A stretch of DNA of 42,748 bases from Bacteroidales bacterium. Its GTDB lineage: Bacteria; Bacteroidota; Bacteroidia; Bacteroidales; WCHB1-69. The stretch is taken from contig JAISAD010000162.1 in the NCBI GenBank assembly GCA_031266895.1, positions 1 to 42,748 of the forward strand, read 5' to 3'. The notes beneath the pieces are model-generated. The model saw only the letters and a list, made by a program, of their open reading frames with translations. It was not told the DNA's origin and made no database searches. This document shows positions 13,683 to 35,102 of this stretch, piece after piece. Numbering within the stretch: position 1 is the stretch's first letter; every line of letters starts with the position of its first letter. Position numbers and translations under genes: made by a program.

Positions 13683-13722
13683 CAATTTTTTTCCTTGCTC
13701 CTGTATCTTCGCATTTATTTAC

Positions 13723-13730: not shown

Positions 13731-13772
13731 CACTCTAAAAATAGTATTGTCTATTGTTTAATTTATAAATTA

Positions 13773-16700: not shown

Positions 16701-17237
16701 GGCATTGAGAGTAATGACATGGTGCTGCACCAGTTCACCGTGCGCGGGCGTCCTCACAAGTCGCTCTCCCTCACCACCGATTTGCAGTGTGCAGACAAGC
16801 GCCTCTCGTCGGGCTATTTCAGCAATCGCAACTATCTCCTGCGCAGCTACAGCATAGATAATGCGGTGCAGTGGCAGCATGAAAATAAAATTCAGGCTGC
16901 GGTGGGCTATATTTTTAAGGATAAGCGCAACAGGGCAGGCGAGGAGTGGGGGCAGCAGCACAGCTTTACGCTCGATTTCAGCTACCGCATGGCGCAAAAG
17001 GGCGCTGTGCAGGTGCAGGCGGCCTATATCAACATTCGCTATCGCGGCGAGGCCAACAGCACGCTGGGCTATGAGATGCTGGAGGGCTTGAAGGCGGGAC
17101 ACAATATTACATGGGGCGCATCCTTTCAGACCAATATCACGGAGTATCTGCGCCTTGATCTCTCTTACGAAGGGCGCGTGTCGGAAGGGCACCGCGTAAT
17201 CCATACAGGAAACATGTCGGTGCGGGCGCATTTTTAG
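13773..17237 (+). CDS. Large (about 1155 aa) conserved Bacteroidota outer-membrane-like protein, function unknown
   Basis: The preferred start is the GTG at 13773, giving (M)RNSLLILLLGVSFASGVMAQ as a signal peptide. The track's TTG at 13695 lies upstream of the promoter box. The protein has a long beta-rich Asn/Tyr/Gly composition and ends in the aromatic residue ...MSVRAHF, as OM beta-barrels do. I recognise the motif GSISRGVSIGNNQDFVLNSSLNLQITGKL from other Bacteroidota hypothetical proteins but cannot name the family. Confidence 0.6.
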   Translation: MRNSLLILLLGVSFASGVMAQRASNYRVGRLTIDTMILKLDTLSILPETFSLQGLPPEAYRFDPITATLAIADSAAIGKTVTYSYRVFTLDFSKKIARKSPAIIMPKHDGHLSLLTPIAAPQNHFSLNNSDLETTGSISRGVSIGNNQDFVLNSSLNLQITGKLSEEWNVSANITDKEVPIQPEGNSRSINDFNRIFIQLKYKNNLLVNAGDIDITRPYSQFLVVNRRVLGMEVIADNRVGAHQQLYNRAGGGMAKGKYVKKSIAAMEGVQGPYKLTGEQNELAIVIIAGSERVYMDGVLLLRGEENDYVIDYNSGELIFTNKRLISAEKRLVVEYEYNNLNYAHFTLYSFNEFNHEKRQKLKLNVNFFHEQDIKSQSLQPELDEAQKLFLSQLGNAVTEADYPNVKPEPYNGNEILYRRRDTVVAGEAYSVYCYASAPSDTLYRLGFTYKGAQLGNYVMVSSSANGRVFQWTAPRNGVPQGDYEPVMLLNTPKMLEMGTVAAEYNFLKNSGIKGEFAFSNYDENLFSKRDNGDNLGMAFKVELFHHNRLHKKGKRDSSWLFKTGLSYEYEHENFCPVESYRSVEFGRDYNLSSDYSRKRAAQMLRFNAGFVHPETGSTEYNLNWYNRVGDVQALRNELVSHTRIKGFGIHTQTSFLLSQDSVQGSRYVQSYNTISKTFRKLETGVKDNLEYNAFREAATQRLRAGSYAFNEALIYLCNSDSMPYLYHFSFKNRIDNSLFNHVLSVNNVIYEAQASFEVARLKHHKIKGTAIFRNNNVRDSARRFKAENNFVGRLEYAGNFLKNSIMVSAHYEAGSGLEQKKSYAYLKVAAGQGNFTWNDYNGNGIEELNEFEPAQFQDEANYIKVWLANNEYVNTYNNQLTLSLQLRPGNVWYNARGFRKFMSCFSNSTLLRTDQKNSLKNSANAFNPFHFNLDDTALVSSNAHVSNTFSFNSPSSYIGADYTFQQNRTKSLLFYGIESNDMVLHQFTVRGRPHKSLSLTTDLQCADKRLSSGYFSNRNYLLRSYSIDNAVQWQHENKIQAAVGYIFKDKRNRAGEEWGQQHSFTLDFSYRMAQKGAVQVQAAYINIRYRGEANSTLGYEMLEGLKAGHNITWGASFQTNITEYLRLDLSYEGRVSEGHRVIHTGNMSVRAHF

Positions 17238-20231: not shown

Positions 20232-20248
20232 TCTAAATTTTTGATACT

Positions 20249-21157
20249 ATGAAAAAGATTCTTTTAGTTATTTTAATTTGCGGGCTTTATCTGCCCCTCT
20301 GGTCACAGCTGGCTGTGGATGCCGGCAGCAATAAGCATCTTTGCCAAGATGAAGATACCGTCTATTTGGGAGGAAACCCTACAGCATGGGGCGGCACCCC
20401 ACCTTATACTTACTGCTGGTGGGTAGAATATCGCCCGTGGTTTCCCGGGTCTCACATTTATTACCGCGCTTCCTATTTGCTGGATGACACTACAAGCGCC
20501 AACCCCAGAGTGCTTTTCGAGTCTTCATCATTAAACAGTCTCTCCTGCATCTACCTTACTGTTACAGATAACAGCGGACAGAGCGTAACCGATTCGGTAA
20601 GCGTAACAGCGTCCCAATTTGTCCATCTTCTTTCTTTGCCCTGGCACTATTCTGTTATACCGGGCGATTCTCTCTGGATTACCGGAGTGGGAAATATAGC
20701 TTCTCTTTTTCCGAGTTCCTGTTTATGGCGGCCTTCTGCAGGGCTGTCAGACACGACGCTCTGTGATGGCTTTTGGGCAAAACCAGATACTACTACCACT
20801 TATTATCAAGTGTTAATTGATACCTTTGGCTGCATGGCCGGTCCGCACGAGGCTTTTACCGTGCATATGAGCGGCGTAAACGTTCCGGAGGCGGATTTGC
20901 CTGAATATGTACACGTTTATCCCAATCCGGCGCGGGAACAGGCTTTGTTTGTCTGGGATTTCGGAACAGGACAGGCGCCTCATGCTCAACTGCTTATTTT
21001 CGACCCCGCAGGGAAAGCCATTCTCGCCAGGCAGCTGGAAGACGCCACCGGCCAGTGGAGTTGGGAAACCGGAAACATCCCTGCCGGCAGCTATCTCTAC
21101 CGCATAATCTGCCATGGCAGGCCGGCCGCGAGCGGAAAAATTGTGGTAGCAAAGTAA
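20249..21157 (+). CDS. T9SS-sorted secreted protein, unknown function
   Basis: 302 aa with signal peptide MKKILLVILICGLYLPLWSQ. It has the motif VDAGSNKHLCQDEDTVYLGGNPTAWGGTPPYTYCWW. The C-terminus VHVYPNPAREQALFVWDF...GSYLYRIICHGRPAASGKIVVAK is a T9SS tail. It lies 17 nt downstream of the S8 gene and is probably co-transcribed. Confidence 0.75.
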   Translation: MKKILLVILICGLYLPLWSQLAVDAGSNKHLCQDEDTVYLGGNPTAWGGTPPYTYCWWVEYRPWFPGSHIYYRASYLLDDTTSANPRVLFESSSLNSLSCIYLTVTDNSGQSVTDSVSVTASQFVHLLSLPWHYSVIPGDSLWITGVGNIASLFPSSCLWRPSAGLSDTTLCDGFWAKPDTTTTYYQVLIDTFGCMAGPHEAFTVHMSGVNVPEADLPEYVHVYPNPAREQALFVWDFGTGQAPHAQLLIFDPAGKAILARQLEDATGQWSWETGNIPAGSYLYRIICHGRPAASGKIVVAK

Positions 21158-21893: not shown

Positions 21894-23228
21894 TCATAAT
21901 TTTTTTATCCCGCTAATAATCAGCCTCACCGTCTGCTCATACTCCTCCAGTCCGCATTGCTCGCAGTTGTCGCCGGGAGCATGATAGCCGCCATAGCGTC
22001 CGCCCAGAGTGTAGATAAACATAGCCGGCACCCCTTTCGCGGTAAAGGGGTAATGATCGCTGTTGGGCGCATTATCTCTGACTTTTAAATTTTTATGGTA
22101 CCGAAACTGCTCATTTGCCGCTGCCATGCCTTGATAGAAGCGGCCGCTGTCTATACTCATCACATTTTCCAGCATCAGCCCGTCGCTGCCGCCGCACAGC
22201 ATGTCGAGATTGAGGAGCAGCCTGATTTTCGACAGGTCTATCAGCGGATTTTCAGCAAAATGCTGCGACCCCAGCAGTCCGCTCTCTTCCCCACTGAAAA
22301 GAATATACAGCACATGGTACCTTATCGGATTATGGTGAAAATGGCGGGCTAAATCCAGCACTGCCGCGCAGCCGCTTGCATTGTCGTGGGCACCCGGATA
22401 GTAAACCCGCGTCCCCATCATGCCCAAATGGTCGTAGTGGGCGGTAAAGACGATAAAGCTGTCCACTGCGCCCCGCTCCATGGCACACACATTCTGCGTG
22501 GCAAGCCGGGTGTGGCGGTTGTCCAAATCAACAGTAATGCTTTTGTGGGCACGCTTGAGCAGCCCTGCCCGCAGGTAAATTACAGTAAAATTGCGCTCAT
22601 ATTCACTGCCTGCCAGCGACTGCGGAGGCAGTTGCGTCTCTTCAATCAGCAGGGCCGCCGTATGAAACGGATTCTCATAGCGCAATTTCAGCACGGCCTG
22701 TAGAAACTCTTGCCCTTCTGCCTCGCTTGCAGCCTTATAGGGTTCTGCAAGATTGAGATACACGGCAACAGGAGTGCGGCTTTTCGCCGCTTTTTGCTGC
22801 CACTTTTCTAATAAGGCTCTGTTTTTTGGCAGCAGCAGGGTGGGAGACAGGCGCACAATTTTCAGCCTTGCATGCAGCGCCGCCGAATAGTCGGCAATGC
22901 GGTAGTCAGCCTGCGGCGACAGGCTGTGCAGGCCCAGCTGCACCTCCGCATGGCCATCCATCGCAAAGGCAGGGCAGGAAAAGTACTGATAGTACTGCTC
23001 ATCCACAGGCAACACTCCCATATTGGAAAAGCAGCGGCTCAAATAGGCCGCTGCTTTAGCTGCGCCGTCCCTCTCGATATTTCTGCCGGCCATTTCGGGC
23101 GAGGCAAGGGTACAAATAACTTGTCTTGCAAAAGCACTGTCCTGTGCACAGGTTATGGAGCTGCAGCCACTCAATCCTAAGAGCAGCAGCAAAAAAAGGA
23201 GGCGTTTCATCTTACTCTTCGGGGGCAA
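21894..23228 (-). CDS. M28-family metallo-aminopeptidase lipoprotein
   Basis: 444 aa with lipobox LLLLGLSGCSS. It has the M28 metal-ligand motifs HYDHLG, GAHDNASGCAAVLDLAR and FSGEESGLLGSQHF. Confidence 0.85.
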   Translation of the reverse strand: MPPKSKMKRLLFLLLLLGLSGCSSITCAQDSAFARQVICTLASPEMAGRNIERDGAAKAAAYLSRCFSNMGVLPVDEQYYQYFSCPAFAMDGHAEVQLGLHSLSPQADYRIADYSAALHARLKIVRLSPTLLLPKNRALLEKWQQKAAKSRTPVAVYLNLAEPYKAASEAEGQEFLQAVLKLRYENPFHTAALLIEETQLPPQSLAGSEYERNFTVIYLRAGLLKRAHKSITVDLDNRHTRLATQNVCAMERGAVDSFIVFTAHYDHLGMMGTRVYYPGAHDNASGCAAVLDLARHFHHNPIRYHVLYILFSGEESGLLGSQHFAENPLIDLSKIRLLLNLDMLCGGSDGLMLENVMSIDSGRFYQGMAAANEQFRYHKNLKVRDNAPNSDHYPFTAKGVPAMFIYTLGGRYGGYHAPGDNCEQCGLEEYEQTVRLIISGIKKL

Positions 23229-24606
23229 ACATCGGATCCCACGGGGGAAGCACTGTCGGCTTTTGATTCAGCAGGTTCAGAATTTCGGCCGGTATATACT
23301 TTTTTTCTATCACCAGACGAAACATATACTCATTAAACCATTCGTTAGTCATAATAAGATTGCCCTTATAGCCGGAACTGCTGCCCCAGCTGTTTTCCAC
23401 CATCCACTTTTTGGGCTGTCCGGAATCATCCAAATCCACAGCTATCAAGGTCATAGCATGAGAAGAGCCGCTGGCAAATGTAGCAATGCGCTCTTTTTTA
23501 TTCATTTCGAAAGTGACGCCCATCAACGAAGCATAATCATAATTGTTGATATCCAGAAAGCCTTTATCGCGATCTAAAAACTTGCTCACATCACATGAAA
23601 AATACATGGAGCAGCTGTCTTTTATGGAAGCAATAGCCATCGAGGCAATTTTATCCATCGGCAGATTCAGGTATTTCCAGTTCTGTCCCTCATACACATG
23701 CCGATCGTACTCAATTTCATACACCTTATTATATTCGCGGGTAGGGTCGTTCATAATCATAATGTAATCGCTGAAATCCTGGCTGGCAAATTCCTGACAG
23801 AACGATTGCGGGGTGTAGGCTTTGGAATTTGAAGGCTTGCCCTGCGCATCTTTTGGGCTCCATGTAAACTCTTTTACCGGCTCGCCCAGGTTGAGCGCCA
23901 GCATCCGGTAGATAACCCCCAGCATCTCTATTTTCCTGTCGTTCAACTTGGCCGGCGTCATCCCTTTTTCCTTGCTCGCAGTGCGCAACTGCAATCCAAA
24001 CTCGCGCAGCTTCAGCCTCAGCAGCTGCGAAAGGCGGCTGGTATTGTTGCTGCTGTAAGTTTCGGGCATCACATCGCGGGGCACAACGCCATATTTGGCT
24101 ACAAGATTGGCCACGCCCGTAAATTGCCCTCCGTCGCCGATCGGATTCTTAAAAAGCCACTCTACTTTCCGGTCGCTCATTTCGCTGCTGCGCGTCTCTA
24201 TAATAGCCTGCAAAAAAAGATTGGCCTTTTCCAGCTGATCCCAGAAAAAGAGATAATTTTGCGAAAATTGAAAGTCGGAAGGCAAATGATGTCCTGCAAT
24301 GGCTTTGGTTCTCAATACATTGAGGCCGGTAAAAAGCCAGCAGCGTCCCGAAGATTTCTGGTTGGTAACGGACTTTGTATTTACCTGATTGGAAAAATAG
24401 CTGTCGAAAGCGGCAGCATTGTCGCTGTTGACAGCCAGTTTGTTGATGCCGAGAGAGTGCAGTGCATTTTTTATCACTTTCATTTCCGGCGATAGAGTGT
24501 AAGCTTTTTGAATTTGAGTCAGCATTGCAGCATCAATGCCGCCTTGCTGGGCAAAAACCGTACCGATGCAGGCGGTCATTAAGCAGGTGAACAGCTGTTT
24601 TTTCAT
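23212..24606 (-). CDS. pepC: Aminopeptidase C / bleomycin hydrolase family (C1B cysteine peptidase)
   Basis: Active-site motif QKSSGRCWLF, and the protein ends in the family-typical ...WDPMFAPEE. The preferred start is the ATG at 24606 (MKKQLFTCLMTACIGTVFAQ). The track start at 24654 lies upstream of the -7 box. The stop overlaps the M28 gene start by 17 nt. Confidence 0.88.
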   Translation of the reverse strand: MKKQLFTCLMTACIGTVFAQQGGIDAAMLTQIQKAYTLSPEMKVIKNALHSLGINKLAVNSDNAAAFDSYFSNQVNTKSVTNQKSSGRCWLFTGLNVLRTKAIAGHHLPSDFQFSQNYLFFWDQLEKANLFLQAIIETRSSEMSDRKVEWLFKNPIGDGGQFTGVANLVAKYGVVPRDVMPETYSSNNTSRLSQLLRLKLREFGLQLRTASKEKGMTPAKLNDRKIEMLGVIYRMLALNLGEPVKEFTWSPKDAQGKPSNSKAYTPQSFCQEFASQDFSDYIMIMNDPTREYNKVYEIEYDRHVYEGQNWKYLNLPMDKIASMAIASIKDSCSMYFSCDVSKFLDRDKGFLDINNYDYASLMGVTFEMNKKERIATFASGSSHAMTLIAVDLDDSGQPKKWMVENSWGSSSGYKGNLIMTNEWFNEYMFRLVIEKKYIPAEILNLLNQKPTVLPPWDPMFAPEE

Positions 24607-24632
24607 ATAAGTTATTTTTAAAAAATTTGGCG

Positions 24633-24640
24633 CAAAGATA
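24633..24640 (-). promoter_or_regulatory. -7 promoter box (TAtcTTTG, minus strand) for the pepC / M28 / rsmI transcription unit
   Basis: The plus strand reads caaagata, 27 nt upstream of the ATG at 24606. Confidence 0.5.
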
Positions 24641-24672
24641 CGGCAAAATATCAAACTGAGATTACTGCCTGC

Positions 24673-25293
24673 TTACGCTTCATCATTTTCCAGCTCCTTC
24701 AACTCCTGCAAGTTTTCCTGAATGGAAGCTATATGTTTGCTATATACCATTTTATACATATAAATACTGACTAGAATGCCGGTAAAAATGATACAAGTAA
24801 AAAATATCCACAGGAGCAGAGGCGCTTTCAGTATCGCGTATATACTTACACCCAGTGCTGTTAGAATAACGGTTATAATAATCGTTGCGATCTTTTCAAT
24901 TTTATTCATCAGACTGTATTTAGCAATGCATATTTGATTGTACATAAGGTTTTTTGAGGTGTCCAGACGCATCAGAAACCGCAATTTTACGATATACCAT
25001 ACAGTGATAAGGGATAATAGCACATACATAAAAACATAAAATATTCTGCCTGTAATCAGAGCAGGCAGGCCAAGATGGGGGAATTGATTTTCAATGGCGC
25101 CGTTAAGCCATACCATAGCGGGAATCAGCAATATGACGATAATCAGACTGAAAAAATCCCAATTGACCAGTTTTCGGATGGATGAGCTTGATTTTGAAGT
25201 GATAAGCTTCTTGATGTAGGTTTTGTTAAAGGCATGTTGCGGTAAATTTTCGCTTGCCGTTTTCCATGATTGTTTTAATTCTTCTAAGTCCAT
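24673..25293 (-). CDS. Four-TM membrane protein encoded immediately after the ECF sigma factor (candidate anti-sigma or partner protein)
   Basis: 206 aa, 25 nt downstream of the sigma gene. It has a soluble N-terminus (MDLEELKQSWKTASENL...), four hydrophobic segments and an acidic coiled tail. There is no HxxxCxxC zinc anti-sigma motif. Confidence 0.55.
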   Translation of the reverse strand: MDLEELKQSWKTASENLPQHAFNKTYIKKLITSKSSSSIRKLVNWDFFSLIIVILLIPAMVWLNGAIENQFPHLGLPALITGRIFYVFMYVLLSLITVWYIVKLRFLMRLDTSKNLMYNQICIAKYSLMNKIEKIATIIITVILTALGVSIYAILKAPLLLWIFFTCIIFTGILVSIYMYKMVYSKHIASIQENLQELKELENDEA

Positions 25294-25318
25294 GATTCTA
25301 TTAATTTTTATTGATTTA

Positions 25319-25813
25319 TTATTGATTTGACAATATTTTTAAGGTTGTTTTAATGCGTTTCAGCCTGGTGCCCACATTGGCAACCGATAACCCTGTAATC
25401 TCTGCAATTTCCTGATACGGCTTTTCTTCCAGCCATAGTAGAATCAGGGTACGGTCAAATGTTTTCAATTGCGCAATGCATCGGTACAGCTCTTTAATCT
25501 CCTGCTGCATGGATTCGCTTTCAAGTAACGGGATGGATACTTCTGTCAGCGATATGTTTTGCTGATGCTTTTTCTCGGTGCGTATCACTGAAATGCAGCA
25601 ATTGAGGGCAATGCGCCAAATCCAGGTGGTAATGCTGCTTTCGCTGCGGAATTTGGGATAGCCTTTCCACAGGGCAAGTACGGTTTCCTGATAGAGATCG
25701 TCTCTCGAAATGGTTTGCGTAGCGTAAAAGCTGCAGATTTTATACACTACCGCTTCGTTTTGCGATAGCATCTCTATGAAATCTTCTGTTAATAATCTGT
25801 CGTGTTGGTTCAT
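25319..25813 (-). CDS. ECF-type RNA polymerase sigma-70 family factor
   Basis: 164 aa. The region 2 pattern is DDLYQETVLALWKGYPKFRSESSITTWIWRIALNCCIS. Region 4 is LWLEEKPYQEIAEITGLSVANVGTRLKRIK. The size and two-domain layout are typical of ECF sigmas. Confidence 0.88.
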   Translation of the reverse strand: MNQHDRLLTEDFIEMLSQNEAVVYKICSFYATQTISRDDLYQETVLALWKGYPKFRSESSITTWIWRIALNCCISVIRTEKKHQQNISLTEVSIPLLESESMQQEIKELYRCIAQLKTFDRTLILLWLEEKPYQEIAEITGLSVANVGTRLKRIKTTLKILSNQ

Positions 25814-26010: not shown

Positions 26011-26217
26011 TTGACGAACCTTTTAGGGCAAATTTGCCCGTTCATCATCTTACGAACAAAGCTTTTAGCCCTCGCCGACTCATTCATCACCTTACGAACA
26101 AAGCTTTTAACCCTTGCCGACTCATTCATTATCTTACGAACGAAGCTTTTAGCCCTCGCTGGCTCATTCATAGCCTTACGAAGGAGGCTTTTAGCCTTTT
26201 CCGACTCGTTTATCACC
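26011..26217 (+). repeat. 42-bp tandem repeat array: four good units at 26050, 26092, 26134 and 26176, plus degenerate flanking units
   Basis: The unit is TTACGAACAAAGCTTTTAGCCCTCGCCGACTCATTCATCACC. The degenerate first unit contains a 14-bp perfect palindrome, GGGCAAATTTGCCC, at 26026-26039. The array lies between the ECF sigma gene and the ATG at 26259. Three of six frames are open only because the unit is 14 codons long. Confidence 0.9.
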
Positions 26218-26258
26218 TTACAAACAAAATTTTTATATCTATAATTAAAAATAATATC

Positions 26259-26984
26259 ATGCAAGAAGTTATTACCCGCATTAATTTGCAGCATTTAAAA
26301 AACGAAACCCACGTTCAGTTTAACGAAAGCGCAAACGCGCTCTTTGTAAAGTACAACCCTCAGACTTTGGGCATTGCGCCTTTGCATGCGCTGTTTAAGA
26401 CGGCGTTTGACAGGGAGATTGCGGCGCTCGACTTTATGCGCAAGAGCGAAATCACGGCACAGATTTTCGAGCAGGACAGGGTGCGAGACGCTGTCTTTCG
26501 CGGCTTTTCGGACACGGTGAAGGGCGCAATCCGCCATTTTGATCCCGCCTGGAGCGAAGCGGCTGAGCGCCTCCACAACCTCTTCAGGCACTATGGAAAT
26601 ATTGCCCAAAAGACTTTCGATGATGAGACGGCGGCCATCAACGACCTGCTACGCGAGCTGCAGGAGAAAAGTTTTGCCACTGCGATTACCCTGCTGGGCT
26701 TGACCCCCTGGCAGGAAAAGCTCCGGGAAGAAAACGACCGCTTTGCGCAGCTGATGATGGACAGATACAGGGAAACCGCCCAGAAAACACCCTATCGCAT
26801 GACGGCTGCGCGCCGCGATACCGACAAATACTATCACGCCATAATAGGTCAGCTGGAAAATATCTCTCTTGCCGCTACTGCCGACATTAGCGAGCTGGTT
26901 AGGGAGCTGAACGCCGTTACCGACCGCTTTAAAAGCATACTGGCCCAGGAGCGCGGAGAGCGGAAAAGGAAATCTGAAAATTAA
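26259..26984 (+). CDS. Alpha-helical hypothetical protein (241 aa), first gene of the dockerin-protease / cohesin-scaffold operon
   Basis: The first in-frame ATG is at 26259 (MQEVITRINLQHLKNETHVQFNESANALF...). The track ORF starts at a TTG at 26034 inside the repeat array. There is no signal peptide, and the tail is charged (ERGERKRKSEN). It ends 7 nt before the S8 gene. Confidence 0.6.
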   Translation: MQEVITRINLQHLKNETHVQFNESANALFVKYNPQTLGIAPLHALFKTAFDREIAALDFMRKSEITAQIFEQDRVRDAVFRGFSDTVKGAIRHFDPAWSEAAERLHNLFRHYGNIAQKTFDDETAAINDLLRELQEKSFATAITLLGLTPWQEKLREENDRFAQLMMDRYRETAQKTPYRMTAARRDTDKYYHAIIGQLENISLAATADISELVRELNAVTDRFKSILAQERGERKRKSEN

Positions 26985-26991
26985 AAGCAAA

Positions 26992-29900
26992 ATGAAGAAT
27001 AGTTATTGTATTTTTTGGCTCTCCTTAATAGGATTGAGCATAAGCGGAGGGCTAAACGCCCAGGATCGCAACAACCAGCATGAGGTGGTGCAGTTAGACC
27101 CGCAAATAAGCCACGCCGGCAGCGTGGCCAACGAAGTGCTGGTAAAGTTTAAAGCCGGCACAGCGGCGCAAATGCAGCAGATTGCCCCCAAAAGAATGCA
27201 GGCCGGCCTCAGCGCTGTGGATGCGGTACTGTCGCACTACGATATTGAAGTGGCCGAGCAGTTGCTCCCCAACGACAACCCCGGCCGTATGCTCAAAAGC
27301 ACGAAAGCCTACAGCGGAAACGATGTGGTGGAAACCTCTCTTAACCAGCTCTATCGGTTACAAGTAGCCGCCACCAGCGCCAAAAGCAGTTTTGAGCTGA
27401 TTGAGGAGCTAAAGGCCTTGCCGGAAGTGGAATTTGCCGAGCCGAACTACATAGTGTCGGCATTAGGAAGGGATTGCCTCGGTAGGGGTGCCGTCGAAGC
27501 AAACTCCACCACAACTGTCGAAGCAAACGATCCCCTCTACCCCCAGCAATGGGGCATCCCTGCGGTGGCACTTGACGCGCTTTACACCAAGCCTGTGCTG
27601 CCGAATGCCCCAAGGAAAGTGATTGCCATTCTCGATACCGGCGTTGACCCCGAACATCCCGACCTTGCGGCCAATATCTGGACAAACCCCGGTGAGCAGG
27701 GCGGAGCAGTCAACTACGATAACGACGGCAACGGCTTTAAAAACGACCTGCACGGCTGGGATTTTGTAAACAAAACCGCCACCGTAAACGACTTTAACAG
27801 CCACGGCACCCACTGCGCCGGTATTGCCGCCGCGGTAGCCGACAACAGTATCGGCATTGCGGGAGCAAATCCCAATGCGCTGATTATGCCCCTTGCCGTG
27901 CTGCAAAGCAACGGACAGGGCGATGTGGCCACCATAATTCAGGGCATTAACTATGCCAAAAATAACGGCGCCGATATTATTTCGATGTCTTTCGGCACCT
28001 ACGCCCACTCTATTGCCCTCGAGCAGGCTTTGGCTCAGGCTTACCAGAATTGCGTACTGGTGGCTGCGGCAGGGAATGATGCTTTGGGAATATACCCTTT
28101 ATGCGGCCTGCCAACATATCGACCTATGTTTCCTGCGGCTTATACTTTTGTGCTGGGAGTACAGGCATCGCAGCAAAATGACGCCATGTCAGTTTTTTCC
28201 AATTTTGACTGCGATGGGGCAACCTTTTCGCAGACTTCCGAAGAACAGCAATACAATTATGAATTAATGGCGCCCGGTACAGGAATTATTTCTACTGTAC
28301 CCAATGGACAATACCGCAGTTATAACGGCACTTCTATGGCTTGCCCATTGGTAGCAGGCGGTATTTCGGCTTTGCTCGACAGGAAAAACTTTGTTTCACA
28401 GGAAGAGTTGTGGGCTAATTTGATACAATCGTCAAACAGCAATGGTATTGTAGATTTTAACGCCGCCTGTAGCTTTGTACTGCAGCCGCAACTCCATATT
28501 ATTGCCATAGAAACCAACGACACCCTTAATGGAGACGGCGATATGCGAGCAGATGCGGGCGAACTGCTGCAAATTTACCCCACTTTAAAAAATACGGGCG
28601 GAGTAACAGGCGGGGAAAACGATACCATTTATTACAAGCTCGAATTTGCCGAATTTGAAGATGCTAATACGGCCACTATTTTAAACGGCGATACTAAATT
28701 TGGTTATATACTTTCTGCCTATTCCAAAATGAAAGCCGCCAATCCCATTAACCTGCAAATTAGCCCGGATGTAGTGGACGGCAGAGTTATAAAATTTGTA
28801 CTTACTGCTTGGCGCGGCAATCATTTAGGCGAAGTAAGCCAGGAATTTCAGGTTTATGTAGAAAACGGCGTGGAATTAAGCGGGATGCTGATGCACAACG
28901 ATACGCTGACTGCCGACAAGCATTATATTGTTACCGATAATTTCGCTATTCCCGAAGGAGTTACATTGGTTATAAAACCAGGAACAGTGCTGAAATTTAA
29001 AGATAATGTTAGAATGTCAAGTGCAGGACAAATAAAGGCAGTTGGAACTCCCGACAGTTTAATTTATTTTACAAAAACAGATTTAGGAAATGGTTGGGGT
29101 AATATATGGTTTAGTAATTATAGTTATACAGATAGTCTCAAATATTGTGTGATTGAATATGTCAACAATCAAACAAACAATCAAATGACTTACAATATGT
29201 CAGATATTATTTTTAGAAATAATACTATGAATTTTAGTACTATGAATATTTTTAATAGCAATATTAGTAATAATAGATGTTGGGTGATTAATAGCACGAA
29301 TTTTGAACATTGTAACATAGTTAATAATGATGCCTATCGGGGTGAGTATGGAGTATCATATGATATTAAATATTTTAGAGAAAACAATATTTTTTCTAAT
29401 TCCCTTTATAGTATACATTTAGTCGATGCAACTCCTGCTATTTATTATCAATCGCGACCTTCATATCACGGTTCTTCCGTAGAAACTATCGCCCGAAAAG
29501 GCATATTTGATTTTTATACTCCAAATAGTGGCATTTTCGGCGTTTATGATTTATCCAATATGCTTATCCGCCCCTATGCCCAAGCCCACGGCATTGTCTG
29601 GAAAGTAGTAGTAAATGGCTACGATGCGCAGGACGAATTTGATATGCTGCCTCCGCTGGGCGTAGGCACGCACGAGTTTAAGGTCTATTTTAACCGTGCC
29701 ATGGATACGCTCGTTGCGCCCATGGTGGCTATGGGCGTTCGCCCGCCCTATACGCAAAATGCCATAGCTGAAAACGGCCACTGGATAGTAGAAGACGACA
29801 GCACCTATATCTATGTCGCCAATTTTACCGTAAAGGCAGCCAGCACCACAGACGGTTTAAACCGGATTTATGTAGCCAATGCCCAGGATAATGAGCATTT

Positions 29901-31077
29901 TGAAATACCTTACGAAAATCAGCGCTTTAACGCTATAGTGCAGGCAGCCGGCAGCATGAGCAACGGCTTTATGGCCACCCCTGCCATGGGCAAAATCAAC
30001 CTGGAATGGGAAAAGCCCGAAGGCTACTTTGACGACCTGCTCGGCTATAACATGTACCGCTATGTTTGGGTAACCGACAGCACCACCAGCGATACGCTGA
30101 TGATAAACACTTCGCTGCTTAGCGACACGCTCTACACCGACTTTGACGTAATGCCGGGCAAAACCTACGGCTATATGTACAAAGTAATGCGTACCGACCT
30201 TGCCATGAACGACTACTCCAAAACTGTCTCTGCCTCTCCGCTCACCGCCGCCAAGGGAGATGCCAATGGCAGCTTGAGCATTGATGTGGCCGACATTGTC
30301 TCTACCGTATCGCATATCACAGGCGGCAACCCTCAACCCTTTATCTTCGAGGCGGCAGATGTTAATTCCGATGGGGTAGTCAATGTACTTGATATTGTAG
30401 CTATTGTCAATCTGATTTTGAATCCGCAGCCAGCTCCGCAAGGCGTAGGCATTGCCTCCACCGCCACTTACAGCATCGAAAGCGACACCCTGTTTATAGA
30501 AAGTCCGGCAACCCTGGGCGGCGTGCAGTTTAAAATCCATGCCGACAAAAATGCGGCAGCCATTCGCCCACTGGCGGCATTAAGCGGCTTTGAAAATGTA
30601 AGCCAGTGGCTCGACGACACCACCTACCTGTTGCTTGCCTTCAGCATGACCGGCAACGAAATCCCCGCAGGCCGAAACGCCCTGCTGCAGCTTGGCGAGG
30701 GCTCGGAACTGGCGGAAATTATCGCCTGCAACCCGCAGGGCGACAATATTCCTATAGTAAACGCCCCCACCGGTATTCCCACGATTGAAACGGTAACGAT
30801 AGCACACAACTGCGCCCTGAAAGTTTATCCCAATCCGTTCCGCTCGGCGCTGCACGTGCAGGTAACCACCCTTTTCAACACCAGCGCAAAGCTTGATCTG
30901 GAATTTACCGACCTTGCGGGAAGACAGCTGCACAAAGTCCGTGCGTTAGCCCCTGCCAACGGCGTTTACGAATACATCTGGAATGCTGCCGGCTTGCCCA
31001 AAGGCCTCTATTTCTGCACGCTGAAGGTAAATAATGAGGCAGTGAAAACCGAAAAAGTAATTTTTGCAGGAGAATAA
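26992..31077 (+). CDS. Multidomain S8 subtilase. Order of parts: signal peptide, I9-like propeptide, S8 catalytic domain, beta-helix-like Asn-rich module, FN3-like module, dockerin-like module, short cohesin-like segment, T9SS C-terminal domain.
   Basis: 1361 aa with a canonical triad: VIAILDTGVDPEHPDL, HGTHCAGIAAAVA and NGTSMACPLVAGGISAL. The dockerin-like pair is GDANGSLSIDVADIV...ADVNSDGVVNVLDIVAIVNLIL. The C-terminus LKVYPNPFRSALHVQV...GLYFCTLKVNNEAVKTEKVIFAG is a T9SS tail. Confidence 0.88.
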   Translation: MKNSYCIFWLSLIGLSISGGLNAQDRNNQHEVVQLDPQISHAGSVANEVLVKFKAGTAAQMQQIAPKRMQAGLSAVDAVLSHYDIEVAEQLLPNDNPGRMLKSTKAYSGNDVVETSLNQLYRLQVAATSAKSSFELIEELKALPEVEFAEPNYIVSALGRDCLGRGAVEANSTTTVEANDPLYPQQWGIPAVALDALYTKPVLPNAPRKVIAILDTGVDPEHPDLAANIWTNPGEQGGAVNYDNDGNGFKNDLHGWDFVNKTATVNDFNSHGTHCAGIAAAVADNSIGIAGANPNALIMPLAVLQSNGQGDVATIIQGINYAKNNGADIISMSFGTYAHSIALEQALAQAYQNCVLVAAAGNDALGIYPLCGLPTYRPMFPAAYTFVLGVQASQQNDAMSVFSNFDCDGATFSQTSEEQQYNYELMAPGTGIISTVPNGQYRSYNGTSMACPLVAGGISALLDRKNFVSQEELWANLIQSSNSNGIVDFNAACSFVLQPQLHIIAIETNDTLNGDGDMRADAGELLQIYPTLKNTGGVTGGENDTIYYKLEFAEFEDANTATILNGDTKFGYILSAYSKMKAANPINLQISPDVVDGRVIKFVLTAWRGNHLGEVSQEFQVYVENGVELSGMLMHNDTLTADKHYIVTDNFAIPEGVTLVIKPGTVLKFKDNVRMSSAGQIKAVGTPDSLIYFTKTDLGNGWGNIWFSNYSYTDSLKYCVIEYVNNQTNNQMTYNMSDIIFRNNTMNFSTMNIFNSNISNNRCWVINSTNFEHCNIVNNDAYRGEYGVSYDIKYFRENNIFSNSLYSIHLVDATPAIYYQSRPSYHGSSVETIARKGIFDFYTPNSGIFGVYDLSNMLIRPYAQAHGIVWKVVVNGYDAQDEFDMLPPLGVGTHEFKVYFNRAMDTLVAPMVAMGVRPPYTQNAIAENGHWIVEDDSTYIYVANFTVKAASTTDGLNRIYVANAQDNEHFEIPYENQRFNAIVQAAGSMSNGFMATPAMGKINLEWEKPEGYFDDLLGYNMYRYVWVTDSTTSDTLMINTSLLSDTLYTDFDVMPGKTYGYMYKVMRTDLAMNDYSKTVSASPLTAAKGDANGSLSIDVADIVSTVSHITGGNPQPFIFEAADVNSDGVVNVLDIVAIVNLILNPQPAPQGVGIASTATYSIESDTLFIESPATLGGVQFKIHADKNAAAIRPLAALSGFENVSQWLDDTTYLLLAFSMTGNEIPAGRNALLQLGEGSELAEIIACNPQGDNIPIVNAPTGIPTIETVTIAHNCALKVYPNPFRSALHVQVTTLFNTSAKLDLEFTDLAGRQLHKVRALAPANGVYEYIWNAAGLPKGLYFCTLKVNNEAVKTEKVIFAGE
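30256..30420 (+). other. Dockerin-like module (two Ca-binding F-hand-like segments) inside the S8 protease
   Basis: GDANGSLSIDVADIVSTVSHITGG-NPQPFIFEA-ADVNSDGVVNVLDIVAIVNLIL. Compare the dockerin consensus GDvNgDG.vn..D...l.+.il......(link)...aDvN.DG.in..D...l.+.il. Confidence 0.65.
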
Positions 31078-31084
31078 AAACCGA

Positions 31085-34051
31085 ATGAAAAGATACATAA
31101 TAGCTTCATTTATACTGCTGCTGTCCGGTTTTGTGGTTGCTCAAAACACCATGCAAATCGGCTCGTATCAAACTCCGCCCGATACAGAACTTGAAATTGC
31201 GCTTGAAATCTCCAACACGGCGTACTTTACAGCGTTTCAGGCAGACATTCCAATTCCTGCGGGCTTTTCCTACGTGGTTGGTTCGGCTGTGCTTAATACA
31301 AGCCGCGCCGGCGGACACCAGTTTTCTGCCGCTATGGTGCAGGCAGGCCTTTTGCGCCTGATAGCCTATGCTGCAGACAACAGCGCATTTAACGGCAATT
31401 CGGGCGCGGTGGCGACTTTCCACTTGAAATCGGCAGCCTCTGCGGGCAATTTTGCCTTGCAGATTCAAAATGCCACAATTGGAAACAGCAGCGGAGAAAA
31501 TGTGCTCACAGGTGTGCAGGCAGGCAATGTTACAGTTGTGTCGCCTGAAATTGCACTGTCGGGCACATCGCTCAATTATGGCCGCACAGCCTTGCAAAGT
31601 TCGCCCACCCGCACTTTTGTAATTCAGAATACCGGCAATGCGTCGTTAACCGTCAACAGCTTCAATTTCAGCAGTGCGGAGTTTTCCACTAATGAGACTT
31701 TGCCGTTCAGCATTGCGGCAAACACAGGTAAAACCGTTCCCATAACTTTTGCGCCCCTGACTAAGGGAGCAAAAAATGCGCAGCTGATTATCGGGAGCAG
31801 CGATTACGACGAACCGACTGTAACGGTCGGATTTCAGGCCATTGCCTACGCTGTGAACGAATTGCACACAGGCAACGCGAGCGGCGCGTCGGAGAGCGTG
31901 CAGACTCTGGAGTTTTCTATTAATAACATGGAAGCTTTTACAGGCTTTCAATTTGACTTGAAACTGCCCGCTGCGCTGACTTATGCAGCCGGTTCGGCAA
32001 TGCTTTTTCGTGCTGACGGACATTCGGTATCGGTAAATCAGTTTAACGACACCTTGCGTGTGGTGGCTTTTTCGTTTGCTAACCATAATTTTACAGGCAG
32101 CAGCGGAAAAGTGCTGAGCTTAAATTTTGCACTTAACGGCATTGCCGGCAACTATCCGCTGGCGATTTCAAATGTAATTATGGTGAACAGTCAGAGTGAA
32201 AATATTTTGTCTGACAAATACAACGGCACGCTGCATATTACCTCGCCCGACATCGCCGCTGCCATAAGCTTGAATTTCGGTGAAGTTTCCATTCTGGAAA
32301 CAAAGGAGATGATGCACCGCATTCATAATTACGGACAGGAGCCGCTGATTCTAAATCAGCTGCAATTTTCAAATTCTTGCTTTTCGAGTCCGCAAACCTT
32401 GCCGCTAACCATTCCGGCAGGCGGCTATTTTGATTTGCCTGTGCGGTTTCAGCAGGCGGCAAAAGGCGTAGCTAGCGGCGTGCTCAAAATTTTCGGAAAC
32501 GACCCTGACGAAAACCCGTTTGAAATCACATTGTCGGGAAATGCTTACATGCCTAACCGGTTGAAAATAGTTTCCGATACTGTCAGCGCAAGCGAGGCCG
32601 CCATTGAAATAGAGATTGAAAATTACGAAGACTTTGTCGCCTTTCAGTTTGATTTAAATTTTCCTGTGGACGTTACACCCAATTTGGAAAATATAGCTTT
32701 AACCGGCCGCAAGCAAAATCACGGCATTTCGGCAAGCTCCATTTCTGAAGATACGGTTCGAATAGTGGTATTCAGCGTAACGCAGCAAAATTTTCTGGGA
32801 AATTCGGGCACAGTGGTCAGGATCCCGTTTACTGCCCGCTGCGGAAATTACAGCTTTTCACTCGGTAATGCCCTGGTTAGCAATGCGCAGTCTGAAAATA
32901 TTTTGCGAAGCACGGAAAGCGGCGCAGTAGAAATCTATCTGGATACGATAAGGATTAACGAAGCAATCTGTCAGGGTGAAGCGTATAGCTTTTTCGGACA
33001 AATGCTAACAACAGCAGGAGACTATGCCCACACTTTGCCATCCACCAGCGGTTGTGACAGCGTAGTAACCCTGCACCTAATCGTTAATCAGTCCGTTACT
33101 AACAGTTTCTCCGCCTCTTCCTGCCTGTCTTATGCATGGAACGGCCAAACCTATATGCAAAGCGGCGACTATCAGCAAACTTTCACAGCCGCCAGCGGCT
33201 GCGACAGCGTAGTCACCTTGCACTTAATTATTAGCCAGTCCGTTACTAACAGTTTCTCCGCCTCTTCCTGCCTGTCTTATGCATGGAACGGCCAAACCTA
33301 TACGCAGAGCGGCGACTATCAGCAAACTTTCACCGCTGTCAGCGGCTGCGACAGCGTAGTAACTCTGCACTTAATCGTTAATCAGCCCGTTGCTAACAGT
33401 TTCTCCGCCTCTTCCTGCCTGTCTTATGCATGGAACGGCCAAACCTATATGCAAAGTGGCGACTATCAGCAAACTTTCACTGCTGCCAGCGGCTGTGACA
33501 GCGTGGTAACGCTTAGCCTGACAATTGCTCCTGCTCCCGATATGCCCGAAGCCATAGCAGGAGAAACAGCTATCACCCAAAGCAATAGTTACAGTTACAG
33601 TATTTCACCGGTGGCTAATGCTTCCTGCTATACTTGGACTGTTAGCAATCCTGCATGGGAGCTTGTTTCCGACTGTGATATTTATGCCACGCTCCATATC
33701 ACCTCCTCAGGAAGCGGAATATTAAGCGTAGCAGCTATTAACGACTGCGACACTTCCGAAGCAAGCATGCTCGAAATCACCTCTTCTGTAGGCATTACAT
33801 TGCTGAACAGCAACACTTCCATTAAGATTTATCCCAATCCGGCACAAACGCACATCGACCTTGTTTTGCCTGAAGATGCACAGCAGGGGGAATTTGCATT
33901 ATACGATGCTCAGGGCAAACTCTTAATGAAGCGAAATATTAAAAACGAGAGCCGTATTGACATTCGGCATCTCGTTCCAGGCATGTATATGTATCAAATT
34001 GATACAAAAGGAAAAGTATTCCCGGGAAAATTACTGATAGATACCCGGTAA
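31085..34051 (+). CDS. Scaffold-like T9SS surface protein. Order of parts: signal peptide, cohesin-like 1, ASPM/HYDIN-type (choice-of-anchor-D-like) Ig module, cohesin-like 2, second Ig module, cohesin-like 3, four GCDS repeats, PKD-like module, T9SS C-terminal domain.
   Basis: The preferred ATG is at 31085 (MKRYIIASFILLLSGFVVAQ), 8 nt after the protease stop. Three modules of about 130 aa each carry F.(A/G)FQ.D(I/L)..P, then .(L/V)R(L/I/V)(I/V)A(Y/F)(A/S), then GNSG.V....(F/L), then Y.(L/F).(I/L), then ..N(S/A)(S/Q)(G/S)EN(V/I)L. The intervening modules have the pattern S(L)NFG.V......F.I.N.G...L. The C-terminus IKIYPNPAQTHIDLVL...GMYMYQIDTKGKVFPGKLLI is a T9SS tail. Confidence 0.8.
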   Translation: MKRYIIASFILLLSGFVVAQNTMQIGSYQTPPDTELEIALEISNTAYFTAFQADIPIPAGFSYVVGSAVLNTSRAGGHQFSAAMVQAGLLRLIAYAADNSAFNGNSGAVATFHLKSAASAGNFALQIQNATIGNSSGENVLTGVQAGNVTVVSPEIALSGTSLNYGRTALQSSPTRTFVIQNTGNASLTVNSFNFSSAEFSTNETLPFSIAANTGKTVPITFAPLTKGAKNAQLIIGSSDYDEPTVTVGFQAIAYAVNELHTGNASGASESVQTLEFSINNMEAFTGFQFDLKLPAALTYAAGSAMLFRADGHSVSVNQFNDTLRVVAFSFANHNFTGSSGKVLSLNFALNGIAGNYPLAISNVIMVNSQSENILSDKYNGTLHITSPDIAAAISLNFGEVSILETKEMMHRIHNYGQEPLILNQLQFSNSCFSSPQTLPLTIPAGGYFDLPVRFQQAAKGVASGVLKIFGNDPDENPFEITLSGNAYMPNRLKIVSDTVSASEAAIEIEIENYEDFVAFQFDLNFPVDVTPNLENIALTGRKQNHGISASSISEDTVRIVVFSVTQQNFLGNSGTVVRIPFTARCGNYSFSLGNALVSNAQSENILRSTESGAVEIYLDTIRINEAICQGEAYSFFGQMLTTAGDYAHTLPSTSGCDSVVTLHLIVNQSVTNSFSASSCLSYAWNGQTYMQSGDYQQTFTAASGCDSVVTLHLIISQSVTNSFSASSCLSYAWNGQTYTQSGDYQQTFTAVSGCDSVVTLHLIVNQPVANSFSASSCLSYAWNGQTYMQSGDYQQTFTAASGCDSVVTLSLTIAPAPDMPEAIAGETAITQSNSYSYSISPVANASCYTWTVSNPAWELVSDCDIYATLHITSSGSGILSVAAINDCDTSEASMLEITSSVGITLLNSNTSIKIYPNPAQTHIDLVLPEDAQQGEFALYDAQGKLLMKRNIKNESRIDIRHLVPGMYMYQIDTKGKVFPGKLLIDTR
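31145..31543 (+). other. Cohesin-like module 1
   Basis: NTMQIGSYQTPPDTELEIALEISNTAYFTAFQADIPIPAGFSYV...LLRLIAYAADNSAFNGNSGAVATFHLKSAASAGNFALQIQNATIGNSSGENVL. Confidence 0.55.
31847..32245 (+). other. Cohesin-like module 2
   Basis: ...VQTLEFSINNMEAFTGFQFDLKLPAALTYA...TLRVVAFSFANHNFTGSSGKVLSLNFALNGIAGNYPLAISNVIMVNSQSENIL. Confidence 0.55.
32558..32938 (+). other. Cohesin-like module 3
   Basis: ...AAIEIEIENYEDFVAFQFDLNFPVDVTP...TVRIVVFSVTQQNFLGNSGTVVRIPFTARCGNYSFSLGNALVSNAQSENIL. Confidence 0.55.
33047..33520 (+). repeat. 147-bp (49-aa) tandem repeat with three near-identical units plus a partial one, encoding GCDS modules
   Basis: AGCGG(C/T)TG(C/T)GACAGCGT recurs at 33047, 33194, 33341 and 33488. 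The encoded unit is SGCDSVVTLHLI(V/I)(N/S)Q(S/P)V(T/A)NSFSASSCLSYAWNGQTY(M/T)QSGDYQQTFTA(A/V). Confidence 0.9.
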
Positions 34052-34058
34052 CATCCGG

Positions 34059-35102
34059 CTAGGCATACAGTTCTGTAAAAATATCGCGCAGTTCCTTGCT
34101 TTCGCGAAGCAGCTGCAGCGTAATTTCCGCATGACCTTTCGTGTAGCCGTTGCCCACAATCATGGTAACATCGCTGCCCACGCCTTCTGCTCCCAAAGCA
34201 GCTTTGGTAAAGCTGGTAGCCATGGAGAAGAAATAAACCACGCCATCGTCTTTAGTACAGAGCACGCTGGTCATTTCGGTATCGGGAATATTGACATTGT
34301 TGATGGTAACATCGGCCATTTTGCCGTCTGTTAATTTCTCAATAACTTCCATCATGGCTACGGGATTGGTGGCGTTGCCGGCAAACACGTGATCGCAAAA
34401 GCCCAGCTTTCTGAGGCGTTCTGTTGATTTTTCGCTGTGGCACATGCCGATAACCTTGCCGGTGATTCCTACCCGCTTTTTAGCTTCGTAGCAGCAGAGC
34501 ATTCCCGATTTGCCACCGGCGCCGATAATCAGCACCGTATCTCCCGGCTTGCACAATTTGGCCGTTTGCGCAGGAGCACCGGCTACATCAAGGGCAGAGA
34601 GTGCCAAAGTTTCGGGCATGTCGGCGGGAATTTTGGCATAAATGCCGCTTTCAAAAAGAATAGCCTTGCCGTCAATATCCACCTGATCAATATCGGAACG
34701 GATTTCCTTAATTTTATCAATGCGCAGAGGCGTCAGCGAAAGAGATACCAGCGTAGCAATTTTATCGCCCACTTTCAGATCGATTTTGCCGGCAAGGGCG
34801 TCTCCGATTTTTTCTACGGTACCCAGTAACATGCCGCCCGAACCTGTCCACGGGTTGCGGTGCTTGCCCTGTTTAGCCACAATATCAAGCATAATTTCTG
34901 CGATTTTAGCTTTATCGCCACCGGCTCGTGCTTCAATATCGGTAAATGAAGCAGAGTCGATATTGAGTGTTTGCACATCAATTAAAATCTCGTTATCGTA
35001 GATTTCATCCATGTTATTGTCAATTTTGTTGGCGGGTTGCGGAAGCACTCCCTCGGGTTCAATGACACGATGCGTGCCGTACTTGTTTCCTTTCTTTTGC
35101 AT
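34059..35102 (-). CDS. kdd: L-erythro-3,5-diaminohexanoate dehydrogenase (lysine fermentation enzyme)
   Basis: 347 aa. YGTHRVIEPEGVLPQPANKIDNNM...NEILIDVQTLNIDSASF...NPWTGSGGMLLGTVEKIG resembles my recollection of the Fusobacterium and Porphyromonas Kdd proteins. A Rossmann motif IIGAGGKSG is present. The call rests on memory, not on a database search. Confidence 0.7.
   Translation of the reverse strand: MQKKGNKYGTHRVIEPEGVLPQPANKIDNNMDEIYDNEILIDVQTLNIDSASFTDIEARAGGDKAKIAEIMLDIVAKQGKHRNPWTGSGGMLLGTVEKIGDALAGKIDLKVGDKIATLVSLSLTPLRIDKIKEIRSDIDQVDIDGKAILFESGIYAKIPADMPETLALSALDVAGAPAQTAKLCKPGDTVLIIGAGGKSGMLCCYEAKKRVGITGKVIGMCHSEKSTERLRKLGFCDHVFAGNATNPVAMMEVIEKLTDGKMADVTINNVNIPDTEMTSVLCTKDDGVVYFFSMATSFTKAALGAEGVGSDVTMIVGNGYTKGHAEITLQLLRESKELRDIFTELYA

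Follow-up and report, generated by a model that had tools for sequence, protein, structure and literature searches.

Introduction

Cohesin–dockerin pairing is the classic route by which Gram-positive cellulolytic bacteria build multi-enzyme machines. Here, we analysed a 42.7-kb stretch of Bacteroidales DNA (hereafter the window, meaning the whole stretch examined) in which three adjacent genes, g1–g3, occupy positions 26259–34051 of the + strand. g2 encodes a secreted S8 subtilase carrying a dockerin, and g3 encodes a scaffold carrying three cohesins. An original prediction, made from the DNA letters, had proposed that these genes form a protease-assembly system on the cell surface, an interpretation that gains support from sequence, structure prediction and comparative genomics, within the reach of these approaches. 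On balance, we favour the view that g2 and g3 constitute a conserved two-gene module of Bacteroidota, a non-cellulosomal cohesin–dockerin system that would cluster S8 proteases on the cell surface.

Among described systems, the clostridial and ruminococcal cellulosomes (CipA, ScaA/ScaB; type I/II/III cohesins) likewise combine a scaffold of repeated cohesins with enzymes bearing a duplicated F-hand dockerin. The likeness extends to fold, as solved cohesins of types I and III align with the second cohesin of g3 at a template modelling (TM) score of ~0.8, and to the anchoring- or adaptor-like tiers seen in related loci, where dockerin-ended scaffolds and small cohesin-only proteins occur. However, the enzyme here is an S8 protease, and neither g2 nor g3 matches a glycoside hydrolase (GH) or carbohydrate-binding module (CBM) family. 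Cellulosomes are anchored through S-layer homology (SLH) domains or sortase, whereas g2 and g3 come from a Gram-negative member of the Bacteroidota and carry the C-terminal domain (CTD) anchor of type IX secretion systems (T9SS). Furthermore, the enzyme bears an anchor and a cohesin-like module of its own, the cohesins are old, position-specific paralogues (~33–36% identity) where those of cellulosomes are near-identical, they alternate with ASH immunoglobulin (Ig)-like domains, and no more than one or two enzymes are encoded in the minimal operon. The locus thus possesses the multi-cohesin scaffoldin and the dockerin-bearing enzyme of a cellulosome but not its carbohydrate-active enzymes or CBMs. 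Given this, and given that the only dockerin-bearing enzymes are S8 proteases, the system is cellulosome-like in mechanism and not a cellulosome.

The concept of a dockerin-bearing protease paired with a cohesin scaffold is not unprecedented. Williams et al. 2021 (PMC8542988) inferred a cellulosome-like structure, degrading polypeptides and polysaccharides, from metagenome-assembled genomes (MAGs) of the Cloacimonadota 'Ca. Stygibacter'. Its parts included a dockerin-bearing Peptidase S8/S53, a C25 peptidase, GH18, GH57 and a cohesin/CBM scaffoldin of 3,755 aa that carries a CTD. Both that system and the one described here were deduced bioinformatically, and they share a dockerin-bearing S8 peptidase, a tandem-cohesin scaffoldin and a T9SS-type CTD for surface attachment. 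They differ in phylum, in the single giant scaffoldin with CBM2/CBM3 and in the mixed enzyme types of the Cloacimonadota, for which no conserved protease–scaffold pair, tri-cohesin/ASH architecture or cassette of dockerin, module X and CTD (Doc-X-CTD) was described (PMC8542988). The original prediction had called a linked scaffold and protease on a T9SS surface uncharacterised; in view of the 2021 proposal this holds for the operon and not for the idea. No description of the g2–g3 operon was found in the literature searched, which leaves out most subscription journals, and the conserved two-gene module, the tri-cohesin/ASH architecture, the Doc-X-CTD cassette and the scale of the family all appear to be undescribed.

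Dockerins have also been reported from rumen Bacteroidetes, one of them on a C10 peptidase (Bensoussan et al. 2016, PMC6487960), and one fifth of the non-carbohydrate dockerin proteins in that study concern protein catabolism. Cohesins and dockerins outside plant cell-wall degradation are further known from the toxins and GH84C of Clostridium perfringens and from a cohesin of Archaeoglobus fulgidus. The solved examples (2jh2, 2vo8 and 2w1n; 2xdh) are structural matches to the modules described here. However, these are scattered single modules on glycosidases, toxins and archaeal proteins, with no protease–scaffold operon and no T9SS sorting. The gingipain–adhesin complexes of Porphyromonas gingivalis are T9SS type A CTD proteases that sit on the outer membrane in non-covalent multi-protein complexes and support asaccharolytic, proteolytic nutrition. 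In outline they resemble the surface display of CTD proteases proposed here from sequence, but gingipains are C25 cysteine proteases, are joined through haemagglutinin/adhesin (Cleaved_Adhesin) domains rather than cohesin–dockerin pairs and have no sequence relationship to g2 or g3.

The role of 'non-cellulosomal' cohesins and dockerins has been a standing question since they were catalogued, and the compact, linked g2–g3 pair makes this question directly testable. If the predicted binding is true, the pair would show how asaccharolytic Bacteroidota arrange surface proteolysis and would join T9SS display to cohesin–dockerin assembly, two well-studied systems. Proteins labelled only 'choice-of-anchor D domain-containing protein' would then be scaffoldins, and new orthogonal cohesin–dockerin pairs would become available for Gram-negative surface display.

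Results

Conserved linkage of protease and scaffold

All three co-directional open reading frames (ORFs) named in the original prediction are present in the window:

26259–26984, + strand: g1, DUF6261 protein, 241 aa (PF19775, E = 1.7e-37)
26992–31077, + strand: g2, secreted S8 subtilase, 1361 aa (ORF plus Pfam/NCBIfam domains)
31085–34051, + strand: g3, three-cohesin scaffold, 988 aa (ORF plus Pfam/NCBIfam domains, module hidden Markov model (HMM))

The gaps between them (26985–26991 and 31078–31084) are 7 nt each; a gap of 7 nt had been given correctly for the first and one of 8 nt for the second. g3 starts with ATG, and an alternative TTG start lies at 31064.

The protease–scaffold pair recurred in every independent related locus examined (12/12), the three-cohesin scaffold being preceded in each case by a single S8-dockerin protease or a pair of them immediately upstream, which bears out the co-occurrence that the original prediction had offered as a check. 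These loci were reached from both sides, through homologues of g3 (L002–L010) and through the protease (L001, L011 and L012). A search of contigs with g2 gave the single locus L001, the others being found via contigs encoding homologues. In L002/L003 and L005–L010, proteases of ~1370–1400 aa with S8 and Dockerin_1 domains were located directly upstream of the scaffold. In L001 (Bacteroidales MAG SIG119; protease 45% identical), L011 and L012, the scaffold was located directly downstream of the protease. L004 is an 85%-identical orthologue in which the C-terminus of the protease sits at the contig edge. The outer flanking genes were unrelated between loci (ribosomal, purine, transposase, glycosidase and others), and the sole dockerin-bearing enzymes across all loci were S8 proteases.

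Related loci also displayed variation in how cohesins and dockerins were distributed. Scaffolds ending in a dockerin, with no CTD, were found in L001 (a 680-aa protein; Dockerin_1, E = 5e-12), in P0059 and in L011, the regions concerned being:

L001, 14253–16971: dockerin-ended scaffold region
L011, 2118–4178: dockerin-ended scaffold region

The scaffolds P0077 and P0079 carry an extra cassette of dockerin, canonical cohesin (Pfam Cohesin, 60 bits) and CTD. Proteins consisting of cohesins only were encoded in the operons of L009 (275 aa; weak CTD match), L010 (258 aa), L008 (646 aa, two modules) and L001 (217 aa). The dockerin-ended scaffolds suggest tiered assembly. In L001, the 217-aa single-cohesin protein comes after the dockerin-ended scaffold, and the layout would therefore be three-tiered, comparable to enzyme, adaptor scaffoldin and anchoring scaffoldin.

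Scaffold architecture and identity of its cohesins

The g3 protein is ordered as signal peptide, cohesin 1 (Coh1), ASH, Coh2, ASH, Coh3, three Cys-rich 49-aa repeats, PKD_6 and T9SS CTD. The ASPM/HYDIN-type Ig modules that the original prediction had placed between the cohesins were recovered as ASH/HYDIN/choice-of-anchor D domains:

31145–31540, + strand: cohesin module 1, aa 21–152 (module HMM, E = 6e-43; against modules 2 and 3, E ~1e-17 to 1e-19)
31523–31810, + strand: ASH/choice-of-anchor D Ig-like domain 1, aa 147–242 (NF012200, E = 3.6e-19; PF15780; PF22073)
31847–32245, + strand: cohesin module 2, aa 255–387 (AlphaFold2 (AF2) and Foldseek)
32267–32542, + strand: ASH/HYDIN Ig-like domain 2, aa 395–486 (PF22544, E = 7.4e-14; PF07610)
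32549–32944, + strand: cohesin module 3, aa 489–620 (module HMM, E = 6e-41)
32957–33514, + strand: three tandem Cys-rich repeats, putative stalk (147-bp tandem DNA repeat at 33045–33510)
33536–33778, + strand: PKD_6 domain, aa 818–898 (PF19408, E = 1.2e-11)
33827–34039, + strand: T9SS type A sorting domain, aa 915–985 (PF18962, 41.7 bits; TIGR04183, 48.1 bits)

Among the families that the original prediction had proposed for scanning, Peptidase_S8, Dockerin_1 and TIGR04183 all matched, whereas Pfam Cohesin (PF00963) had no match on modules 1–3 of g3 at E ≤ 10. Because this model misses the window modules, the case for membership was built on homologues, profiles and structure. Homology links modules 1–3 (phmmer, E 1e-17 to 1e-23; modules 1 and 3 against module 2, E 1e-19 to 1e-23), and orthologous modules at all three positions pass the Pfam Cohesin cut-off (24.1 bits) with 25–44 bits over nearly the full model. 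These include P0098 at position 1 (39.8 bits), P0120 at position 2 and P0107, P0021, P0045 and P0020 at position 3. When a profile built from 48 modules (A1) was compared with every Protein Data Bank (PDB) sequence, 16 matches were obtained at E ≤ 10, 15 of which were cohesins; the best was 5n5p (E = 1.7e-4), and 6kgc aligned over its full length. Searched as a whole with phmmer, g3 matched the PDB through its CTD alone (8glj_D, E = 0.004).

The structural evidence agrees with this. Modelled with the A1 alignment, module 2 has the nine strands expected of it by the original prediction, with a predicted local distance difference test (pLDDT) score of 97.7 and a predicted TM score (pTM) of 0.90. 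All top 50 Foldseek matches to this model in the PDB were cohesins, the best being CaCohA2 (6kgf_A, E = 1.2e-9, TM 0.83) and the third-best the non-cellulosomal A. fulgidus cohesin 2xdh (E = 2.2e-9). By fold and homology, the identity of the g3 modules as cohesins is settled.

We further investigated how these cohesins are distributed among relatives. At least 187 homologues of g3 were found, and module counts and per-position scores were taken from the 120 of them that were listed. Exactly three cohesin modules occurred in 118/120, and the window module from the same position was the best scorer for 342 of 354 homologue modules, although the modules inside g3 are only ~33–36% identical to one another. 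On this pattern, the three cohesins are old paralogues, each particular to its position, which suggests that the sockets are not equivalent.

Against a library of 1.84 billion representative proteins, the module profile gave 7,500 matches at ≤1e-3, 3,627 at ≤1e-10 and 886 at ≤1e-30. Most of these proteins have three modules, and some have 8–14. The four largest multi-module proteins examined (P0241, P0242, P0244 and P0245) all finish in Por_Secre_tail and may represent large Gram-negative scaffoldins. Alongside 8–14 cohesins, they contain CarboxypepD_reg or InlB B-repeat (Flg_new_2) domains. Named relatives came from MAGs of Bacteroidales, Paludibacter, Bacteroidaceae and Muribaculaceae and were annotated merely as 'choice-of-anchor D domain-containing protein' or 'T9SS type A sorting domain-containing protein'.

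The Cys-rich 49-aa repeat that follows Coh3 had no Pfam family match. Its DNA has a period of 147 with 3.2 copies and 90% matches (Tandem Repeats Finder), and this high identity between copies suggests that the array was recently expanded.

Catalytic domain and dockerin of the protease

The g2 protein comprises, in order, a signal peptide, a propeptide with a fervidolysin-like match (Pfam/NCBIfam), the S8 domain, ~600 aa of beta-rich modules, the dockerin, a further module (module X) and the T9SS CTD. Both the subtilase and the dockerin, the latter placed by the original prediction at nt 30256–30420, were recovered by Pfam, and sorting domains were confirmed on both large proteins:

27619–28443, + strand: S8 catalytic domain, aa 210–484 (Pfam PF00082 Peptidase_S8, E = 2.7e-47)
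30253–30417, + strand: dockerin, aa 1088–1142 (Pfam PF00404 Dockerin_1, 23.9 bits, gathering cut-off 22.9)
30439–30777, + strand: module X, cohesin-related beta-sandwich, aa 1150–1262 (hhalign, HMM, AF2)
30823–31062, + strand: T9SS type A C-terminal sorting domain, aa 1278–1357 (PF18962, 29.2 bits, cut-off 27; TIGR04183, 29.6 bits, cut-off 23)

The Asp-His-Ser triad of the S8 domain is intact and in canonical order, with D215 (ILD215TG), H271 (H271GTHC) and S448 (GTS448MA), and N362 is the oxyanion residue. g2 thus has the features of a Peptidase S8 and is a predicted protease; among solved structures, its catalytic domain comes closest to that of the collagenolytic deseasin MCP-01 (3vv3, E = 2.7e-34). 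The middle region (aa 490–1080) gave nothing useful in a Pfam scan at E ≤ 10. In the AF2 model the CTD forms a seven-strand sandwich.

The dockerin match covers positions 1–56 of the 57 in the Dockerin_1 model, and orthologous dockerins score higher. The segment reads GDANGSLSIDVADIVSTVSHI - TGGNPQPFIFEAA - DVNSDGVVNVLDIVAIVNLIL and contains two 12-residue F-hand loops, DANGSLSIDVAD and DVNSDGVVNVLD, corresponding to D1090-x-N-x-S-x3-D-x2-D1101 and D1123-x-N-x-D-x3-N-x2-D1134, each followed by a helix, so that loop and helix together make up one of two duplicated segments of ~22 residues. Within each loop, positions 1, 3, 5, 9 and 12 hold an acidic or amide residue. In an alignment of 58 sequences (A2), positions 1, 3 and 12 of loop 1 and positions 1, 3, 5 and 12 of loop 2 show conservation of 90% or more. 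The A2 profile matches the solved dockerins 2y3n_B (E = 0.0045), 5lxv_B and 6kg9. In a three-domain AF2 model of dockerin, module X and CTD, the dockerin helices lie at model residues 31–41, 51–54 and 64–75 with a pLDDT of ~90. Judged from these features, the module is a canonical duplicated F-hand dockerin that is predicted to bind calcium.

Two further features of the dockerin were apparent from the alignments. Firstly, both halves read NVLDI in most orthologues (13 orthologous dockerins aligned), and such near-symmetry is a feature tied to dual-binding-mode dockerins. Secondly, the linker NPQPFIFEAAD between the halves (g2 aa 1112–1124, ~30325–30363) is nearly invariant in the 58 relatives, with F49, A54 and D55 (A2 numbering) fully so, whereas this part of a dockerin is usually described as variable. 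The near-invariant linker may therefore mark a distinct dockerin subtype.

Module X between the dockerin and the sorting domain

Module X (~105–113 aa) was overlooked in the original prediction. In the three-domain AF2 model it has eight strands and a pLDDT of ~92. It is present in every orthologous protease, where dockerin, module X and CTD form an invariant cassette. Pfam Cohesin had no match on it at E ≤ 10. However, hhalign aligned the X profile with the cohesin-module profile over 82 columns at 93.5% probability (E = 2.2e-7), and in the L001 scaffold the third cohesin is matched by an HMM of X (E = 1.4e-6). The best Foldseek match to the three-domain model was a construct of cohesin and FN3 (2w1n, E = 2.6e-8), and the others were generic tandem beta-sandwiches. 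Because Foldseek on this multi-domain model was mostly non-specific, the cohesin call leans mainly on hhalign. The fold assignment is thus moderately supported, and module X is probably a divergent, shortened cohesin, less secure in its identity than the modules of g3.

Discussion

Proposed assembly

Both g2 and g3 begin with a hydrophobic signal-like N-terminus and, with their CTDs, have the sequence features of T9SS type A cargo. They would leave the cytoplasm by the Sec pathway and then cross the outer membrane by the T9SS, which would read the type A CTDs. Such CTDs are normally cut off, with a lipopolysaccharide (A-LPS) anchor taking their place, as known from the T9SS of P. gingivalis, and by analogy g2 and g3 would both be processed and attached to the surface in this way. 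The scaffold would then display its three cohesins with the ASH Ig-like domains as rigid spacers between them and with the Cys-rich repeats and PKD domain as a stalk raising them off the surface. The calcium-binding, near-symmetrical dockerin of g2 is predicted to plug into one or more of these cohesins, a pairing that we infer from the conserved linkage of the two genes. One scaffold might collect up to three proteases in this manner, and operons with two protease paralogues could give mixed sets. Module X may in turn receive the dockerin of a dockerin-ended scaffold or of another protein or protease, and dockerin-ended scaffolds and small proteins of cohesin plus tail would allow tiered or chained assemblies, similar to anchoring and adaptor scaffoldins. 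The likely purpose would be concentrated extracellular proteolysis for an amino-acid-fermenting anaerobe.

A far-reaching version of this scheme, which we put forward tentatively and think somewhat doubtful, is that the locus represents a widespread and unrecognised Bacteroidota 'proteolysome'. It would be T9SS-anchored and dedicated to subtilases, with the protease acting as both plug and socket and with three sockets of differing specificity on the scaffold. With dockerin-ended scaffolds and small cohesin anchors, a lattice of proteases could grow in tiers or chains on vesicles or the outer membrane, and the same cohesin subtype would underlie T9SS scaffoldins numbering in the thousands and having as many as 14 cohesins.

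Evidence against and alternative explanations

Several observations weigh against a protease-clustering role for g2 and g3. The Pfam score of the g2 dockerin is barely over the cut-off (23.9 vs 22.9 bits), Pfam Cohesin misses the g3 modules, and g2 is the only dockerin-bearing ORF in the window. Coh1–3 have diverged position by position and are only distantly similar to one another, and one dockerin type may therefore not fit all three. In addition, g2 and g3 each have their own CTD anchor, so the dockerin is not needed simply to keep the protease on the cell.

The last two of these points also favour the strongest alternative, in which g2 and g3 are independent T9SS cargo that is merely co-expressed and forms no complex. 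The scaffold would then be an adhesin or surface-layer protein whose cohesin, ASH and PKD domains serve as Ig-like spacers or ligand binders, and the dockerin would be a calcium-stabilised structural module. ASH/choice-of-anchor D and PKD domains are indeed typical of adhesins, and cohesin- and dockerin-like modules outside cellulosomes occur widely, their functions being mostly untested (Peer et al. 2009, as summarised in PMC8542988). However, this would not account for the strict adjacency of protease and scaffold in 12/12 loci with differing genomic contexts, nor for the strong conservation of the dockerin, including the near-symmetry of its halves. Dockerins at scaffold C-termini and cohesin-only proteins in the operons also point the other way, since such shuffling is expected of modules that pair. 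Strict linkage and modular shuffling therefore argue against independent cargo, which we consider unlikely.

Less probable still is that the true partner of the dockerin is module X, in an intramolecular clasp (in the spirit of X-Doc dyads) or in head-to-tail protease polymers, with Coh1–3 binding dockerin proteins encoded elsewhere: the invariant Doc-X-CTD cassette of all orthologous proteases, the cohesin relationship of X (hhalign 93.5%; best Foldseek match cohesin-containing), the distinct specificities suggested by position-specific conservation of Coh1–3 and the equivalent dockerin, cohesin and CTD cassette at the C-terminus of the scaffolds P0077 and P0079 would fit, but X is shorter (eight strands, ~105 aa) and has diverged much further than the cohesins of the scaffold, the support for its fold is only moderate, and the constant order of scaffold after protease would be left unexplained.

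Genomic context of the window

Around g2 and g3, the window encodes further exported or proteolytic proteins, a setting consistent with the proposed role in proteolysis. Three more ORFs have a CTD match, and two of these, encoding proteins of 1740 aa and 302 aa, clear the TIGR04183 cut-off. A second S8 protease (17442–20231, 929 aa) has a Por_Secre_tail score of 21.6 bits, under the cut-off of 27, and the 302-aa CTD protein begins 17 nt after it (pair 17442–21157). An M28 peptidase gene lies at 21894–23228. Just downstream of g3, positions 34059–35102 encode L-erythro-3,5-diaminohexanoate dehydrogenase (KDD), an enzyme of lysine fermentation (NF052381, E = 5.7e-81). The second S8 protease, the CTD proteins, the M28 peptidase and KDD mean that the gene context fits a host that is a proteolytic, amino-acid-fermenting anaerobe with a T9SS; none of the T9SS machinery genes lies within the window.

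A 480-aa protein encoded in the 21894–25813 neighbourhood had no NCBIfam match; it has a papain-type QxxxGxCW motif and, by eye only, would be aminopeptidase C-like. The 929-aa protease and its 302-aa neighbour were considered as a second copy of the system and rejected, as neither has a dockerin or cohesin match. The 1740-aa T9SS-CTD protein (8420–13642, − strand) contains at least nine copies of a repeat related to the Cys-rich repeat of g3 (phmmer, E = 2.8e-97 overall). Divergent from its gene is an 1180-aa ORF (13695–17237) that had no Pfam or NCBIfam match and whose C-terminus (...VRAHF) is aromatic, like those of outer-membrane beta-barrels.

Upstream of the protease, g1 ends 7 nt before g2 and is therefore probably co-transcribed with it in the window. 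By eye, its N-terminus is missing a hydrophobic signal, in agreement with the original prediction, which had also grouped g1 with g2 and g3. That grouping did not hold: phmmer found no relative of g1 in the six-frame ORFs of the ten loci L001–L010, so g1 is a local neighbour and was ruled out as a third component of the system. In L001, a 790-nt non-coding stretch (9138–9925) precedes the protease orthologue at the place that g1 occupies in the window.

A gene for an extracytoplasmic function (ECF) sigma factor (25319–25813, − strand) is divergent from g1, and the 206-aa membrane protein beside it is possibly an anti-sigma factor. Scans for promoter and terminator consensus sequences performed no better than on shuffled sequence. 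The intergenic region between the sigma factor gene and g1 is filled by a 42-bp tandem repeat (26041–26235; 4.6 copies, 80% matches), which may be regulatory. This repeat stops ~25 nt ahead of the g1 start codon and yields spurious repetitive ORFs on both strands.

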